From: a virus
Taxonomy: Duplodnaviria > Heunggongvirae > Uroviricota > Caudoviricetes
Reading direction: 5' to 3' (one strand)
IMG/VR virus record: IMGVR_UViG_2541047595_000008
Location: 1 to 5,974 of that record
DNA length: 5,974 nucleotides
Positions 1-5,974 of this stretch are shown piece by piece; position 1 is the stretch's first letter; each line of letters begins with the position of its first letter. The notes beneath the pieces are model-generated. The model made no database searches. It saw only the letters and a list, made by a program, of their open reading frames with translations, and was not told where the DNA came from. The position numbers and the translations under genes were made by a program.

Positions 1-411
1 GCAGCATTTTCTTCTGAAATGTATCCCAAACTGGCAAAGGTTTATCCAACGTTAAAATTACCTGATTTACGCGGTGAGTTTATCCGTGGTTGGGATGATG
101 GGCGAGGGATTGACTCTGGTCGCTCTATTTTAAGCGAGCAAGGATATGCAACGGAGGATCATGCTCACGGATTACCGTCAAAATCAACCGTAGCAACTGA
201 CCGCTCAATTAATTTCTACTTTGACGAGGCATGGGCTACTAGTGGTAATACGGGAGTTATCAGATGGGGGAACACAAGCGATGCAGGATTGCCAGCCCCT
301 AATTATGGAACTTTTAAAACATATAAACAGTCCGTAGCTAATTTAGGTACTGCTGGCTTAGAAACCCGCCCTCGTAATATTGCATTTAATTATATTGTGA
401 GGGCGGATTAA
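1..411 (+). CDS. Tail-fibre C-terminal variable domain Sv0 (5'-partial; gene continues upstream of window); probably the currently expressed variant
   Basis: Frame 1 is open from base 1 (AAFSSEMYPKLAKVYPTLKLPDLRGEFIRGWDDGRGIDSGR...) to TAA at 409..411. It carries the same conserved N-block and the same C-terminal tail (ETRPRNIAFNYIVRAD) as the minus-strand cassettes. The ORF-track start at 19 is an internal Met. Confidence 0.8.
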   Translation, partial: AAFSSEMYPKLAKVYPTLKLPDLRGEFIRGWDDGRGIDSGRSILSEQGYATEDHAHGLPSKSTVATDRSINFYFDEAWATSGNTGVIRWGNTSDAGLPAPNYGTFKTYKQSVANLGTAGLETRPRNIAFNYIVRAD

Positions 412-416
412 TTATA

Positions 417-1028
417 TCAACTGGCTGTAGAAAGTTGTTTTTCAGGCCAGTTGAGATCTGGTGCCGTGGTTAAATCCATCGCGTTCAGCTCGTCTATATA
501 ATCTAGCACGGAGTTAAGCTGCGTGGTTTCTGCCTGCGTCAACTTCCGTCCAGCCCGTAATTTCAACTGAATCAGACTAATGGAATCCATCGCAGTATCA
601 ATCAATGACTGACGTTTTGTTTCTGCTGCCTCTACAGCTGCACTATGTTGAGCCTCAGTATCAACCACCCATTTCTCTCCATCCCATTTGTCGTATGGTG
701 TTAGCGGGGCGATAGTGGTTGTATTTTCCGGATAGTCACCCAACACCGTGATTTCTTCGGGATTCCCAGTGTCAATGCTATAGACAGTTTCGCCACGATG
801 ATCTGGCACATACTCCCATGAACTTAAATCCTCTGAACGGAGAATCGCATAACCTGCTTTATGTGAGCCTGGAGCATCCAAACAAGAATTTGCCGGAATA
901 CCAACGCCAACAGCAAGATATTCAGTTGATGCAGAAATATATTCCCGATTACCACCATCATAGTTATAAACGATAATGTTTCCTGCCTGTATGGCTATAA
1001 GTTCGCTATTTAATATCGCATTATCCAT
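417..1028 (-). CDS. tfa: Tail-fibre assembly protein (Tfa / Mu-U-like chaperone), 203 aa
   Basis: The protein shows the Tfa pattern I recall from lambda Tfa and Mu/P1 U: GIPANS, DHRGETVY, PEN..T, KW.G..WV.DTEA and a C-terminal TAPDLNWP. Its ATG overlaps the stop of cassette A by 1 nt (TAATG on the minus strand). Confidence 0.85.
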   Translation of the reverse strand: MDNAILNSELIAIQAGNIIVYNYDGGNREYISASTEYLAVGVGIPANSCLDAPGSHKAGYAILRSEDLSSWEYVPDHRGETVYSIDTGNPEEITVLGDYPENTTTIAPLTPYDKWDGEKWVVDTEAQHSAAVEAAETKRQSLIDTAMDSISLIQLKLRAGRKLTQAETTQLNSVLDYIDELNAMDLTTAPDLNWPEKQLSTAS

Positions 1029-1486
1029 TATGCTGCTCTCACAATATAATTGAAGGCAATGTTACGTGGGCGGGTTTCATTCCCCCCAGATAACTCCGTT
1101 CTGTATTGACTGGTAAATTTACCATTAATCGCTCCTTCTTGGACGGCGTTATCTGTCGACAACAGACTATCCCCCCCTCTGTCATTTGGCACCAATACCG
1201 TGTTATCCCACGCGTCCCATGACCGAATATTATGATAATGACTTCCTGTTAACCACCCCTGTATGCTTAAGATGACCCTTCCCGCATCCACACCTCGCCC
1301 ATCATCCCAACCACGGATAAACTCACCGCGTAAATCCGGTAATTTATTGGTGGGATAAGCCTTTGCCAGATTTGGGTACTTTTCAGAAGAAAATGCTGCA
1401 CCATTGCATTTCAGCCACCCCGTTGGAGGTGTGGCTGAGGGCCACGGAACAGGTACACCAACGGGCAGCGCCGAGCCTTCTCCTAA
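1028..1486 (-). CDS. Silent tail-fibre C-terminal cassette A (no start codon; coupled to tfa)
   Basis: Manual translation shows the minus-strand frame open from site 1 down to TAA at 1028..1030: LGEGSALPVGVPVPWPSATPPTGWLKCNGAAFSSEKYPNLAKAYPTNKLPDLRGEFIRGWDDGRGVDAGRV...ETRPRNIAFNYIVRAA. The ORF track reports only 1028..1291 because the first usable start codon is an internal GTG. Confidence 0.75.
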   Translation of the reverse strand, partial: LGEGSALPVGVPVPWPSATPPTGWLKCNGAAFSSEKYPNLAKAYPTNKLPDLRGEFIRGWDDGRGVDAGRVILSIQGWLTGSHYHNIRSWDAWDNTVLVPNDRGGDSLLSTDNAVQEGAINGKFTSQYRTELSGGNETRPRNIAFNYIVRAA

Positions 1487-1503
1487 ACCAACGTTTCTAT
1501 GCC
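1478..1503 (-). repeat. Invertase crossover site 1 (hix/gix/cix-like, 26 bp)
   Basis: ttctcctaaacc-aa-cgtttctatgcc. Two imperfect inverted 12-bp half-sites flank a central AA dinucleotide. The aaacc-aa-cgttt core matches my recollection of hixL (AAACC-AA-GGTTT). It sits at the 5' boundary of cassette A. Confidence 0.7.
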
Positions 1504-1958
1504 GCTCTTACGATGTAATTAAATGCAATATTACGGGGGCGAGCTGATACATAAGCCCACCAGTCATATTTTTTGGCACCTTTACTGGATGCATCAAATA
1601 TCCACTTTTTGCCATTTATGGCCCCCCATTGATTAGAGGTTAAAGTGTCACCAAATCCGTATTGTGTTGAGCTGAGTGAACTGATATCCCCAGTATCATT
1701 ATCATCAAAACCGGAGACGATAGTGCCTTCCTGAAATGAAAGTATCTCTCGTCCTGCATCAATACCTCGTCCGTCATCCCAGCCACGGATAAATTCGCCC
1801 CGTAAATCCGGTAATTTATTGGTCGGATAAGCCTTTGCCAGCCTGGGGTACATTTCAGAAGAAAATGCTGCTCCGTTACATTTCAGCCAGCCCGTTGGTG
1901 GTGTGGCTGAGGGCCACGGAACGGGCACACCAACAGGCAGTGCAGAGCCTTCCCCCAA
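1497..1958 (-). CDS. Silent tail-fibre C-terminal cassette B
   Basis: 153-aa ORF. The apparent start is a TTG lying inside crossover site 2. It has the conserved N-block (GEGSALPVGVPVPWPSATPPTGWLKCNGAAFSSEMYP...KLPDLRGEFIRGWDDGRG), a unique middle and the invariant C-terminal RPRNIAFNYIVRAA. Confidence 0.75.
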   Translation of the reverse strand: MGEGSALPVGVPVPWPSATPPTGWLKCNGAAFSSEMYPRLAKAYPTNKLPDLRGEFIRGWDDGRGIDAGREILSFQEGTIVSGFDDNDTGDISSLSSTQYGFGDTLTSNQWGAINGKKWIFDASSKGAKKYDWWAYVSARPRNIAFNYIVRAA

Positions 1959-1975
1959 ACCAACGTTTTTATGTG
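1950..1975 (-). repeat. Invertase crossover site 2
   Basis: ttcccccaaacc-aa-cgtttttatgtg. The stop codon of cassette C (plus-strand tta at 1969..1971) is embedded in the outer half-site. Confidence 0.7.
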
Positions 1976-2472
1976 GCCCTTACAATGTAATTAAAAGCAA
2001 CGTTGCGGGGGCGCATTGATATCCATGCCCCGGTAAAATTATCCTCTGCCGTCCTTTGAGTGCCTGTTATGGAGTTATCTGATGATGCTGGAACATAATC
2101 GCTATTATCTCCTGCTTTAGGATTAGCAGGGTTTCCAACAGTTATAACAGAATCAGCAGTAGCATAAGCGATACCTACTTTGACATTAGTAGTCAGATCG
2201 ACACCGTAATAATCCTGCAAAGCTGTACGAATAAATGTTGCAGTCTGACCACTTAGCAATGAACGCCCTGTATCAATCCCTCTCGAATCATCCCAACCAC
2301 GGATAAACTCACCGCGTAAATCAGGTAATTTTAACGTTGGGTAAACCTTTGCCAGATTTGGGTACTTTTCAGAAGAAAATGCTGCTCCGTTACATTTCAG
2401 CCACCCCGTTGGTGGTGTGGCGGAGGGCCACGGAACAGGTACACCAACGGGCAGTGCCGAGCCTTCCCCTAA
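1969..2472 (-). CDS. Silent tail-fibre C-terminal cassette C
   Basis: Manual translation shows the frame open from site 3 to the stop at 1969: LGEGSALPVGVPVPWPSATPPTGWLKCNGAAFSSEKYPNLAKVYPTLKLPDLRGEFIRGWDDSRGIDTGRSLLSGQTATF...RPRNVAFNYIVRAT. The ORF track shows only 1969..2259 because no start codon lies upstream of the TTG at 2259. Confidence 0.75.
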   Translation of the reverse strand, partial: LGEGSALPVGVPVPWPSATPPTGWLKCNGAAFSSEKYPNLAKVYPTLKLPDLRGEFIRGWDDSRGIDTGRSLLSGQTATFIRTALQDYYGVDLTTNVKVGIAYATADSVITVGNPANPKAGDNSDYVPASSDNSITGTQRTAEDNFTGAWISMRPRNVAFNYIVRAT

Positions 2473-2489
2473 ACCAACGTTTTTATGCC
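2464..2489 (-). repeat. Invertase crossover site 3
   Basis: ttcccctaaacc-aa-cgtttttatgcc. Confidence 0.7.
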
Positions 2490-2986
2490 GCCCTTACGAT
2501 GTAATTAAATGCAACGTTGCGAGGGCGAGTTTCTGTACCTACATTTCCACTAATTTCACCATAACGTTTAACACTACGAGAGCTAATAGCTCGTAGTGAG
2601 GAAGGCACCTTATGACCGGGTTCGTCCGTTTTAACTATTCCCCCGTCACCGTATGTAGCTAGTATTCCTGGATTGACGCCTTCCCGTGCACTTCCTGCGG
2701 CGAGTCCGTCCCCTGTCCATAATTCCATATAGTGTGCATGGTCCAAAATTGTGTGTGGCTGCCAATTAAGCAAAGCGCGGCCAGCATCCACCCCGCGCCC
2801 ATCATCCCAACCGCGAATAAATTCTCCCCGTAAATCCGGTAATTTATTGGTGGGGTAGGCTTTTGCCAGTTTGGGATACATTTCAGAAGAAAATGCTGCA
2901 CCATTGCATTTCAGCCAGCCCGTTGGTGGTGTTTCTAAGGGCCACGGAACGGGCACGCCAACGGGCAGTGCAGAGCCTTCCCCCAA
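2483..2986 (-). CDS. Silent tail-fibre C-terminal cassette D
   Basis: 167-aa ORF with the conserved N-block (variant WPLETPP), a unique middle and the C-terminal ETRPRNVAFNYIVRAA. Its apparent TTG start lies in site 4. Confidence 0.75.
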   Translation of the reverse strand: MGEGSALPVGVPVPWPLETPPTGWLKCNGAAFSSEMYPKLAKAYPTNKLPDLRGEFIRGWDDGRGVDAGRALLNWQPHTILDHAHYMELWTGDGLAAGSAREGVNPGILATYGDGGIVKTDEPGHKVPSSLRAISSRSVKRYGEISGNVGTETRPRNVAFNYIVRAA

Positions 2987-3003
2987 ACCAACGTTTCTAT
3001 GCC
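2978..3003 (-). repeat. Invertase crossover site 4
   Basis: ttcccccaaacc-aa-cgtttctatgcc. Confidence 0.7.
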
Positions 3004-3428
3004 GCTCTTACGATGTAATTAAATGCAATATTACGAGGGCGAGATTCTCTCCCCCCCACCGAGTTAGTGCTATCCGATCTCTGTTGAATTACTGAGCCAG
3101 AAACATCAGCGGCTAAAAGATAATATCCACCTGTTGTATCAAATCCAGTTTGTGCCCATGTTCTTTCGAAATAATGACTATGTGATTTAAATTCATCTGT
3201 TTGAGTTGATAATAACGCGCGCCCACTATCCACTCCACGCCCATCATCCCAACCACGGATAAACTCACCGCGTAAATCCGGCAATTTATTGGTGGGGTAA
3301 GCCCTTGCCAGATTTGGGTACATTTCAGAAGAAAATGCTGCGCCGTTACATTTCAGCCACCCTGCTGGCGGTGTGGCTGAGGGCCACGGAACAGGCACAC
3401 CAACGGGCAGCGCAGAGCCTTCCCCCAA
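2997..3428 (-). CDS. Silent tail-fibre C-terminal cassette E
   Basis: 143-aa ORF with the conserved N-block (variant PPAGW), a unique middle and the C-terminal SRPRNIAFNYIVRAA. Confidence 0.75.
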   Translation of the reverse strand: MGEGSALPVGVPVPWPSATPPAGWLKCNGAAFSSEMYPNLARAYPTNKLPDLRGEFIRGWDDGRGVDSGRALLSTQTDEFKSHSHYFERTWAQTGFDTTGGYYLLAADVSGSVIQQRSDSTNSVGGRESRPRNIAFNYIVRAA

Positions 3429-3445
3429 ACCAACGTTTTTATGCC
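3420..3445 (-). repeat. Invertase crossover site 5
   Basis: ttcccccaaacc-aa-cgtttttatgcc. Confidence 0.7.
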
Positions 3446-3915
3446 GCCCTTACGATGTAATTAAATGCGATATTTCGTGGACGGGTTTCACTCCCGCCAG
3501 TATTACCAATACTCCCTCGAGAATGAAGTGTCGGTGATGGAATCAAATTCCCTCCTGTATTTGAGGCATCAAGCCCCCGTCCTTGTGTGTATGTTTTTTT
3601 GAAAATTGTCGCCAGCTCCCATTCATCTTTTGTGTCGTAACCATCATTGGCTACAACAATATGTCGGTGCTTTTCCAGCATTCCTGTCTGAATGCTCAAT
3701 AAAGCACGTCCCGCATCCACCCCGCGCCCATCATCCCAGCCGCGAATAAATTCTCCCCGTAAATCCGGTAATTTATTGGTGGGATAAGCCTTTGCCAGCC
3801 TGGGGTACATTTCAGAAGAAAATGCTGCTCCGTTGCATTTTAGCCAGCCTGTTGGCGGAGTGGCTGAGGGCCACGGAACAGGTACGCCAACAGGCAATGC
3901 AGAGCCTTCCCCCAA
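3439..3915 (-). CDS. Silent tail-fibre C-terminal cassette F
   Basis: 158-aa ORF with the conserved N-block, a unique middle and the C-terminal ETRPRNIAFNYIVRAA. Confidence 0.75.
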   Translation of the reverse strand: MGEGSALPVGVPVPWPSATPPTGWLKCNGAAFSSEMYPRLAKAYPTNKLPDLRGEFIRGWDDGRGVDAGRALLSIQTGMLEKHRHIVVANDGYDTKDEWELATIFKKTYTQGRGLDASNTGGNLIPSPTLHSRGSIGNTGGSETRPRNIAFNYIVRAA

Positions 3916-3932
3916 ACCAACGTTTTTATGCC
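3907..3932 (-). repeat. Invertase crossover site 6
   Basis: ttcccccaaacc-aa-cgtttttatgcc, identical to sites 5 and 7. Confidence 0.7.
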
Positions 3933-4393
3933 GCCCTTACGATATAATTAAACGCAATATTACGGGGGCGGGTTTCAGATGCTGTACGAACTGAGCGAGA
4001 GGCGTCGAATGTCCAGTTATAAGCGCCATAACCCTCAATAATTTCCGTTTCCTTTAGGCCTGTAGATAATACTTGACCATGTTGACTAAATGGCCCTGAA
4101 CTAAGTACATCTCTAAAAAGCTGAGTACGCCCGAAAGAACCAACAATATTCTGAATTGCATCATTCTGTGCAGATAATAAATTACGGCCAGAGTCAATCC
4201 CCCGCCCGTCATCCCAGCCGCGAATAAATTCGCCCCGTAGATCCGGCAATTTATTAGTGGGGTAAACCTTTGCCAGATTTGGGTACTTTTCAGAAGAAAA
4301 TGCTGCTCCGTTACATTTCAGCCACCCCGTTGGTGGTGTGGCGGAGGGCCATGGAACAGGTACACCAACGGGCAGTGCCGAGCCTTCCCCCAA
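3926..4393 (-). CDS. Silent tail-fibre C-terminal cassette G
   Basis: 155-aa ORF with the conserved N-block, a unique middle and the C-terminal ETRPRNIAFNYIVRAA. Confidence 0.75.
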   Translation of the reverse strand: MGEGSALPVGVPVPWPSATPPTGWLKCNGAAFSSEKYPNLAKVYPTNKLPDLRGEFIRGWDDGRGIDSGRNLLSAQNDAIQNIVGSFGRTQLFRDVLSSGPFSQHGQVLSTGLKETEIIEGYGAYNWTFDASRSVRTASETRPRNIAFNYIVRAA

Positions 4394-4410
4394 ACCAACG
4401 TTTTTATGCC
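4385..4410 (-). repeat. Invertase crossover site 7
   Basis: ttcccccaaacc-aa-cgtttttatgcc. Confidence 0.7.
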
Positions 4411-4832
4411 GCCCTTACGATGTAATTAAATGCGATATTTCGCGGCCTGACAGCAACAAAATTTATACCATCACCTACAGAGTTACTGGTGAAATTAAAT
4501 CGTGAAAATCCTGGCTGATTTCCGACGATGCCATCATGAAAATTAATTGCGTGCCCCGCACCATCGCCTATATTTCCGGCACGCTGAGAAAAGTTTGTAG
4601 CCTCTTGGCTGCTTAATAATGCTCGCCCATTGTCCACACCTCGTCCATCATCCCAACCTCGAATAAATTCGCCCCGTAGATCCGGCAATTTATTGGTGGG
4701 GTAAACCTTTGCCAGATTTGGGTACTTTTCAGAAGAAAATGCTGCTCCGTTACATTTCAGCCACCCCGTTGGTGGTGTGGCGGAGGGCCATGGAACAGGT
4801 ACACCAACGGGCAGCGCCGAGCCTTCCCCTAA
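4404..4832 (-). CDS. Silent tail-fibre C-terminal cassette H (outermost, next to the invertase)
   Basis: Manual translation from site 8 is open: LGEGSALPVGVPVPWPSATPPTGWLKCNGA... continuing in the same frame into ORF 4404..4688 (LPDLRGEFIRGWDDGRGVDNGR...VRPRNIAFNYIVRAA). The ORF track is shorter because the first start-capable codon is the TTG at 4686..4688. Confidence 0.7.
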   Translation of the reverse strand, partial: LGEGSALPVGVPVPWPSATPPTGWLKCNGAAFSSEKYPNLAKVYPTNKLPDLRGEFIRGWDDGRGVDNGRALLSSQEATNFSQRAGNIGDGAGHAINFHDGIVGNQPGFSRFNFTSNSVGDGINFVAVRPRNIAFNYIVRAA

Positions 4833-4849
4833 ACCAACGTTTTAGTCTT
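4824..4849 (-). repeat. Invertase crossover site 8 (array boundary site)
   Basis: ttcccctaaacc-aa-cgttttagtctt. The inner half-site and core match the other seven. The outer half-site diverges, with no preceding cassette and no embedded stop codon, as expected for the edge of the invertible region. Confidence 0.65.
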
Positions 4850-4886
4850 AATCCCTACCTATACCAACGATGTATTTTTAACTAAA

Positions 4887-4893
4887 CAAAGAG
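4887..4893 (+). promoter_or_regulatory. Ribosome-binding site of the invertase gene
   Basis: aaagagg lies 10 nt upstream of the ATG at 4904. Confidence 0.5.
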
Positions 4894-4903
4894 GTTGTTT
4901 TTC

Positions 4904-5476
4904 ATGCAAATTGGCTACATTCGTGTGTCAACAAATGACCAAAACACAGATTTACAAAGAAATGCACTGAACTGCGCAGGATGTGAACTGATTTTTGAAG
5001 ATAAAATAAGCGGAACAAAGTCAGCCAGACCAGGCTTGAAAAAGCTGCTCAGAACGTTATCAGAAGGAGATACGCTGGTTGTCTGGAAGCTGGATAGGCT
5101 TGGCAGAAGTATGAAACACCTTATCACGCTTATAGAGGAGTTGCGGGAAAAAGGTGTTAATTTCCGTAGTCTGACAGACAGTATTGACACATCAACACCC
5201 ATGGGGCGTTTCTTTTTTCATGTCATGGGTGCTTTAGCAGAAATGGAACGTGAATTAATTGTTGAGAGAACACTGGCCGGACTGGCAGCTGCACGCGAAC
5301 AGGGACGCATTGGCGGACGTCGCCCGAAGTTGACAAAAGAACAACATGAGCAAATAGCGAGGTTGATCGAAAATGGCTACAGCAGGAAACAGTTGGCAAT
5401 TATTTACGATATCGGTGTATCGACGATTTATCGTTATCATCCTGTAGAGAAGCGCCAAACTCAATCTGAGCTGTAA
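4904..5476 (+). CDS. Serine DNA invertase of the Gin/Cin/Hin/Pin/Min family (190 aa)
   Basis: MQIGYIRVSTNDQNTDLQRNAL...TLVVWKLDRLGRSMKHL...SLTDSIDTS.PMGRFFFHVMGALAEMERELI.ERT.AGLAAAR..GRIGGR is close to colinear with Gin and Cin as I recall them. The catalytic Ser is at position 9 and there is a C-terminal HTH (GVSTIYRY). The true start is the ATG at 4904; the ORF-track start is an upstream TTG at 4895. Stop is TAA at 5474..5476. Confidence 0.95.
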   Translation: MQIGYIRVSTNDQNTDLQRNALNCAGCELIFEDKISGTKSARPGLKKLLRTLSEGDTLVVWKLDRLGRSMKHLITLIEELREKGVNFRSLTDSIDTSTPMGRFFFHVMGALAEMERELIVERTLAGLAAAREQGRIGGRRPKLTKEQHEQIARLIENGYSRKQLAIIYDIGVSTIYRYHPVEKRQTQSEL

Positions 5477-5596
5477 TTCTAATGCCGCGTCGGTGTAATT
5501 TATCATGATAGAATAGGTACATTTATCGCGCGGCACATCAATTCGATGTATCTAGCGCCTGCTGACCGCTAATGAAAACTGTTCTCGAAATGTTGT

Positions 5597-5615
5597 CCCT
5601 AGTCCGAGACTAGGG
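5597..5615. other. Perfect 8-bp inverted repeat with a 3-nt loop (ccctagtc-cga-gactaggg)
   Basis: Seen directly in the sequence. No T-tract follows, so it is not a classical intrinsic terminator. It could be a protein-binding palindrome or an RNA hairpin. Confidence 0.25.
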
Positions 5616-5884
5616 TATCACCTCTGGAAAGCATACGCAGAACCTTTTTTAACCCAGGGTGCCCAGCCTTTTTGCTGCTCGCCTTATTCGCAAAAATTAG
5701 CTCACATCCTGCGCTTTCAAGTGCTTTTCACTGCATAGCTGTGTTTTGTTCATTTGTCTATATGCGTACATAGCCTATTAGCATATTTTTTGCCCACTAT
5801 CGTTATTTATTGCAAGCCACAGGTTTTAATTAACAAAACCAGTGTGTGTGGAAATCACAAAGTGCATACCGTTCTCAAATGTTG

Positions 5885-5974
5885 GGCTTTGTTGAATAAA
5901 TCGAACTTTTGCTGAGTTGAAGGATCAGATCACGCATCTTCCCGACAACGCAGACCGTTCCGTGGCAAAGCAAA
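5885..5974. mobile_element. Terminus of an IS903-group (IS5-family) insertion sequence; element continues beyond the window
   Basis: ggctttgttgaataaatc at 5885..5902 matches my recollection of the 18-bp IS903 terminal inverted repeat. The following ~70 bp (gaacttttgctgagttgaaggatcagatcacgcatcttcccgacaacgcagaccgttccgtggcaaagcaaa) matches the IS903 remnant I remember flanking the Tn903 kanamycin cassette in common vectors. This is from memory, not from a search. Confidence 0.6.

Follow-up and report, generated by a model that had tools for sequence, protein, structure and literature searches.

The DNA analysed here, referred to below as the window, is a stretch of 5,974 nucleotides from a virus of the class Caudoviricetes (IMG/VR record IMGVR_UViG_2541047595_000008, positions 1 to 5,974). 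Positions 1–4890 are occupied by a multi-segment tail-fibre inversion cassette, with many alternative C-terminal segments (Collar-domain ORFs ending in ...RPRNIAFNYIVRA) and one tail-fibre assembly gene on the minus strand (417–1028). The first 113 nt of the window lie inside a conserved cassette repeat, and eight other copies occur in the window at 78–93% identity, all inverted relative to 1–113. The sequence AAACCAACGTTT was found in eight exact copies, all on the plus strand, at positions 1485, 1957, 2471, 2985, 3427, 3914, 4392, and 4831 (0.02 expected by chance), and these copies are candidate crossover-site cores; the P1 cixL core was not found in the window cassette. In related replicons, the same cassette segments occur in other orders and orientations. 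Between positions 1363 and 4885, each cassette repeat also carries a plus-strand ORF, mostly of 51 aa (51–58 aa; MPDLGTFQKKML...NQRFYAALTM), running antisense to a tail-fibre segment over its conserved 5′ region; these ORFs most probably reflect the repeat itself and are unlikely to be genes.

The cassette is followed on the plus strand by the serine DNA invertase of the tail-fibre inversion module (4904–5476; PF00239 Resolvase and PF02796 HTH_7). Its longest ORF starts at a TTG at position 4895 (193 aa), and the relatives annotate the ATG at position 4904 (190 aa), which is the form on public record. The collection that we searched lists this exact invertase protein in 14962 blocks. A terminator-like hairpin with a T-rich tail lies at 5482–5496, beginning 5 bases beyond the invertase stop codon. 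Further downstream, at approximately 5600–5784 on the minus strand, there is a truncated invertase pseudogene that matches P1 cin and corresponds to the 5′ portion of a cin-like gene. Over its first 94 bp, which cover the annotated recombinational enhancer, the pseudogene agrees with the 5′ end of P1 cin at 84 of 94 positions and with the window invertase at 71 of 94, and it contains two in-frame stops. The final 90 bp of the window (5885–5974) belong to a different kind of sequence, an insertion sequence end, the identity, junction, and probable extent of which are described below.

Identity of the IS903 end

Positions 5885–5974 (plus strand) correspond to the left, transposase-proximal end of IS903, element positions 1–90. 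In a BLAST search of the phage collection, the 90 bp were identical at all 90 positions to the start of the IS903 copy of P7 (AF503408.1, mobile_element “insertion sequence:IS903”; E = 2e−39). The annotated P7 element is 1057 bp long and occupies positions 1501–2557 of the P7 locus retrieved for comparison (L002), and the window matches positions 1501–1590 of that locus, in other words, from the first base of the element. The original prediction that the last 90 bp comprise the terminal inverted repeat and adjacent interior of IS903 was thus correct to the base. We considered and rejected chance similarity, given this E-value and the fact that the match opens with base 1 of an annotated element.

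The 18-bp terminal inverted repeat, GGCTTTGTTGAATAAATC, is an exact match at positions 5885–5902 (plus strand), forms the outer edge of the IS, and is identical to both ends of the P7 copy (inverted at the far end). It occurs once in the window even when up to 3 mismatches are allowed (0.01 expected by chance). Across the junction, the window reads ...CGTTCTCAAATGTTG and then, from position 5885, GGCTTTGTTGAATAAATCGAACTTTTGCTGAG... The transposase gene begins at position 5962, equivalent to element position 78, where the tnpIS903 CDS of P7 starts. From there, the window reads GTG GCA AAG CAA (VAKQ) on the plus strand and ends one base later, at position 5974, so that 13 bases of the transposase gene lie inside it. 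The window stops 90 bp into IS903, so that the second inverted repeat, expected about 1057 bp away, would lie outside it. The full-length reference transposase (307 aa) scored 358 bits against NF033579 (cut-off 140) and matched PF13737 and PF01609, which identifies it as an IS5-family DDE transposase.

This end is extremely widespread. A BLAST search of plasmid records with positions 5885–5974 returned no fewer than 5000 records, with ≥99% identity in 3415 of the matches listed, and the matching features, where annotated, carried the PGAP name “IS5-like element IS903B family transposase.” Copies bearing different annotated names matched at 98.9–100%, and 90 bp is too short to separate the isoforms IS903, IS903B, and IS903D. 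The window and P7 share element positions 1–90, the 18-bp inverted repeat, and the position of the transposase start, but differ in the site occupied: the P7 copy lies between upf93.6 and upf91.7, whereas the window copy lies in the spacer between the cin pseudogene and the position of lydC.

The junction and the uninterrupted relatives

The backbone to the left of position 5885 matched 90–100 kb plasmids of E. coli, Klebsiella, and Salmonella at approximately 99–100% identity. These relatives are IncY, non-mobilizable, P1-like phage-plasmids, and one of them is an mcr plasmid. The invertase, cassette, and spacer were 96.5–100% identical to those of P1-like plasmids, in which the lyd and dar genes follow; in the window, these genes would fall beyond IS903 and outside the sequence available. 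It had been proposed that the locus sits in an IS-rich context such as a plasmid or a decaying prophage. The P1-like IncY phage-plasmid backbone bears out the first of these settings, but the end at position 5885 is the only IS end within the window, and the relatives are complete phage-plasmids of 90–100 kb.

When the window was compared by BLAST with the retrieved loci, nine IS-free relatives aligned over positions 5374–5884 at 98.8–100% identity and all ended at position 5884, and the P7 IS903 match began at position 5885. Similarly, every backbone alignment obtained from the plasmid and E. coli genome searches ended at position 5884. Because the nine uninterrupted relatives align through position 5884 and no further, the junction is exact. 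The invertase stop codon ends at position 5476, so that IS903 begins after 408 bp, in agreement with the earlier estimate of an IS about 400 bp downstream of the invertase. These 408 bp (5477–5884, plus strand) are intact backbone, colinear with the nine IS-free relatives and homologous to the cin–lydC region of P1. The suggestion that the element had been interrupted or truncated on this side therefore holds insofar as backbone colinearity breaks at 5884|5885; the inversion module itself is intact, with the invertase and the following 408 bp colinear with the relatives.

The relatives also reveal what normally lies to the right of the junction. Their empty site reads ...CAAATGTTG|TTCAACTTACTGTTGTATAGGTAAAAAATG..., followed by lydC, the ATG of which lies 27 bp past the insertion point and begins an ORF of 87 aa from the holin family (PF16083). 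This ORF is annotated as LydC in phages vB_EcoM-673R5 and vB_EcoM-813R1, and pSCKLB684-mcr annotates a shorter, 79-aa form of it that starts 51 bp past the insertion point. In all 10 of the listed contigs carrying the exact invertase, the downstream order was invertase, holin, holin, LydB, DarA_N, DarA, and DdrB; in the uninterrupted relatives, the invertase is followed by the cin pseudogene, lydC, lydA, lydB, hdf, darA, and ddrB. It had also been suggested that whatever normally follows the invertase gene may have been displaced. This does not apply to the cin pseudogene, which the window retains, and the normal later genes are those from lydC to ddrB. The transposase of IS903 reads away from the invertase and toward lydC.

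The closest framework for comparison is provided by P1-like IncY phage-plasmids with a multi-segment tail-fibre inversion region of the p15B Min type, such as pSCKLB684-mcr (NZ_MH781719.1) and vB_EcoM-813R1 (ON470617.2). Positions 4633–5884 are 96.5–97.9% identical to several of them, and they encode an identical invertase protein and carry the same cin pseudogene. They differ from the window in that the pseudogene leads into lydC without interruption, whereas the window carries IS903 at that point. The spacer is also homologous to that of P1 (AF234172.1), and an alignment of the window, the empty site, and P1 placed the insertion point at P1 nt 31559/31558, a short distance before lydC and bordering the annotated P2cin −10 hexamer. 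P1 itself has a functional cin, which diverges from lydC, and the annotated promoters P1cin and P2cin are found in the spacer between the two genes. In the window lineage, by contrast, a pseudogene occupies the cin position, and the functional invertase gene, located further upstream, shares the orientation of lydC.

We found no second example of this insertion. No record spanned the left junction in BLAST searches of plasmids, E. coli genomes, and phages or in a scan of genome, viral, and metagenome contigs, and no exact protein on record corresponded to the 53-aa ORF that crosses it. No IS903 was found downstream of the exact invertase, all 10 of the places listed being empty sites. As a test for an insertion hot spot, an empty-site probe was matched to plasmids, and none of 40 evenly spaced rows among the 431 matches showed a break at the insertion position. 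The IS903 site in the spacer between the cin pseudogene and lydC is thus apparently new and unique.

Probable origin and extent of the insertion

IS903 encodes a DDE transposase that makes staggered cuts 9 bp apart and thereby generates a 9-bp target duplication. The P7 copy, for example, is flanked by the 9-bp duplication CACGAAAGT. In the window, the predicted target is CAAATGTTG (5876–5884), the last nine bases of the backbone, which would be expected again at the far end of the IS. A published table also lists a 9-bp duplication for IS903, together with the target motif WTTYA-N9-TRAAW (PMC2577343, Table 1). Once reconstructed, the insertion site reads GTTCT-CAAATGTTG-TTCAA, which agrees with this motif at 6 of the 10 specified positions. 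The P7 site obtains the same score, and 10% of positions in a related locus do at least as well. The score is compatible with an IS903 insertion and is not diagnostic of it.

From the sequence of the element end and its exact border with the backbone, we consider it very probable that positions 5885–5974 are an IS903 end produced by transposition into the spacer between the cin pseudogene and lydC. Specifically, a copy of IS903 (IS5 family) would have transposed into the spacer of a P1-like IncY phage-plasmid. As for what lies beyond the window, the known behavior of IS903 favors a complete 1057-bp copy, which is probably followed by the 9-bp duplication CAAATGTTG and then by lydC, lydA, lydB, hdf, and darA. 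If the insertion is complete and simple, its far end would be expected to read GATTTATTCAACAAAGCC-CAAATGTTG-TTCAACTTACTG, where TTCAACTTACTG is the lydC leader.

The most serious alternative is that the IS903 end marks the edge of a composite transposon or resistance module, or is the product of an IS903-mediated deletion, inversion, or cointegrate, in which case lydC would not be the next gene and no matching duplication would be present. IS903-type elements abound in resistance plasmids, many Klebsiella plasmid records containing them in several places, and the mcr plasmid among the backbone relatives points in the same direction. A case of this kind is found in the P1-like Salmonella phage SJ46 (KU760857.1; positions 4144–5998 of the retrieved locus L015), in which IS903D lies immediately downstream of blaCTX-M-27, with Tn1721 genes beside it and cre/ref nearby. 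Resistance cargo thus does enter P1-like phage-plasmids with IS903-type elements, at other sites. In SJ46, however, blaCTX-M abuts the transposase-proximal end of IS903D, whereas in the window the same end abuts clean backbone, so that the usual CTX-M arrangement is absent on this side. The predicted right junction was absent in a scan of genome, viral, and metagenome contigs and was found nowhere in the collections searched, which would be in keeping with a larger module, but this absence says little, since the left junction, which is present in the window, was missing from the same collections. Furthermore, simple insertion is the commonest outcome of IS903 transposition. An edge of a larger module or rearrangement is therefore possible, but we regard it as considerably less likely than a complete simple insertion.

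It is very unlikely that only a fragment of IS903 is present, either as a solo end or as a truncated copy left by a later deletion or by the insertion of another element. Such a fragment is compatible with the window, in which 90 bp of IS903 are visible; nevertheless, those 90 bp are 100% identical to copies of the active type, with the inverted repeat and the transposase start intact, and if the contig broke within a complete, multi-copy IS, no deletion would be needed to explain the short view. Repeats occupy both window ends, as described above for positions 1–113, which fits a short-read contig broken at repeats, and the window probably ends at position 5974 because short-read assembly did not continue through the multi-copy IS. 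The uniqueness of the junction among the collections searched and the repeats at both window ends might also suggest an assembly chimera, with the backbone and IS903 not adjacent in the real molecule, but we give this hardly any credence, since the inverted repeat starts precisely where the backbone stops, as in a real transposition junction. In a chimera, the join would be expected within sequence common to both parts, and the backbone and IS903 have only TGTTG in common near the junction.

Predicted effect on lydC and significance

In P1, lydC is described as monocistronic, an early promoter is predicted for it, and its product serves as an accessory holin, the loss of which delays lysis and does not prevent it (PMC9025707). 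LPdar (AAGTTACTTTGCATACCAT), a late promoter of P1, is located in the interval separating lydC from lydA, and all the relatives preserve its 19-bp core exactly. Because of this location, LPdar is downstream of the insertion point. Judged by position in the relatives, the predicted arrangement is one in which lydC alone is separated from its upstream sequences, and the dar operon retains LPdar.

A complete insertion would leave 27 bp before the lydC ATG, placing any native upstream promoter at least 1 kb away. From the P1 literature and the geometry of the locus, we infer that lydC may have lost its upstream promoter and may be transcribed solely by read-through from IS903, the transposase of which has the same orientation, and that lydA, lydB, and the dar genes would continue to use LPdar. 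Because LydC is accessory in P1 and LPdar would be retained, the insertion should be tolerated, with lysis timing shifted at most.

A consensus scan of the window and the empty site identified no sigma-70 promoter for lydC upstream of the insertion point and none split by IS903. We also examined whether IS903 splits a P1-type late promoter for lydC, since CACAAAGTGCATACCGT, just upstream, shares TGCATACC with LPdar, and rejected this candidate because the −22 box is not conserved. The sequence at positions 5855–5873, ATCACAAAGTGCATACCGT, which is conserved in P1, likewise shares TGCATACC and a TANNNT-type hexamer with LPdar and lacks the conserved −22 box; it overlaps the region homologous to the P1cin −35 element, on the opposite strand.

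In itself, this is an ordinary mobile-element insertion, that is, a known element in a known replicon type. We think it rather doubtful that the insertion amounts to more, either because IS903 forms one side of a larger module bounded by IS903 copies, such as a resistance region, beside the host-range switching cassette, or because cutting off the lydC promoter measurably retunes lysis timing; if true, either reading would be a modest new observation on the remodelling of phage-plasmids by insertion sequences. Otherwise, the insertion matters little beyond annotation: it probably explains the end of the window, and it sets the right-hand limit of usable backbone at position 5884. The inversion module and its invertase are left intact, and the genes expected beyond IS903 can be named, namely, lydC and the dar operon. 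For the phage-plasmid itself, the insertion raises the possibility that lydC expression has changed and that IS-borne cargo could enter at this point.
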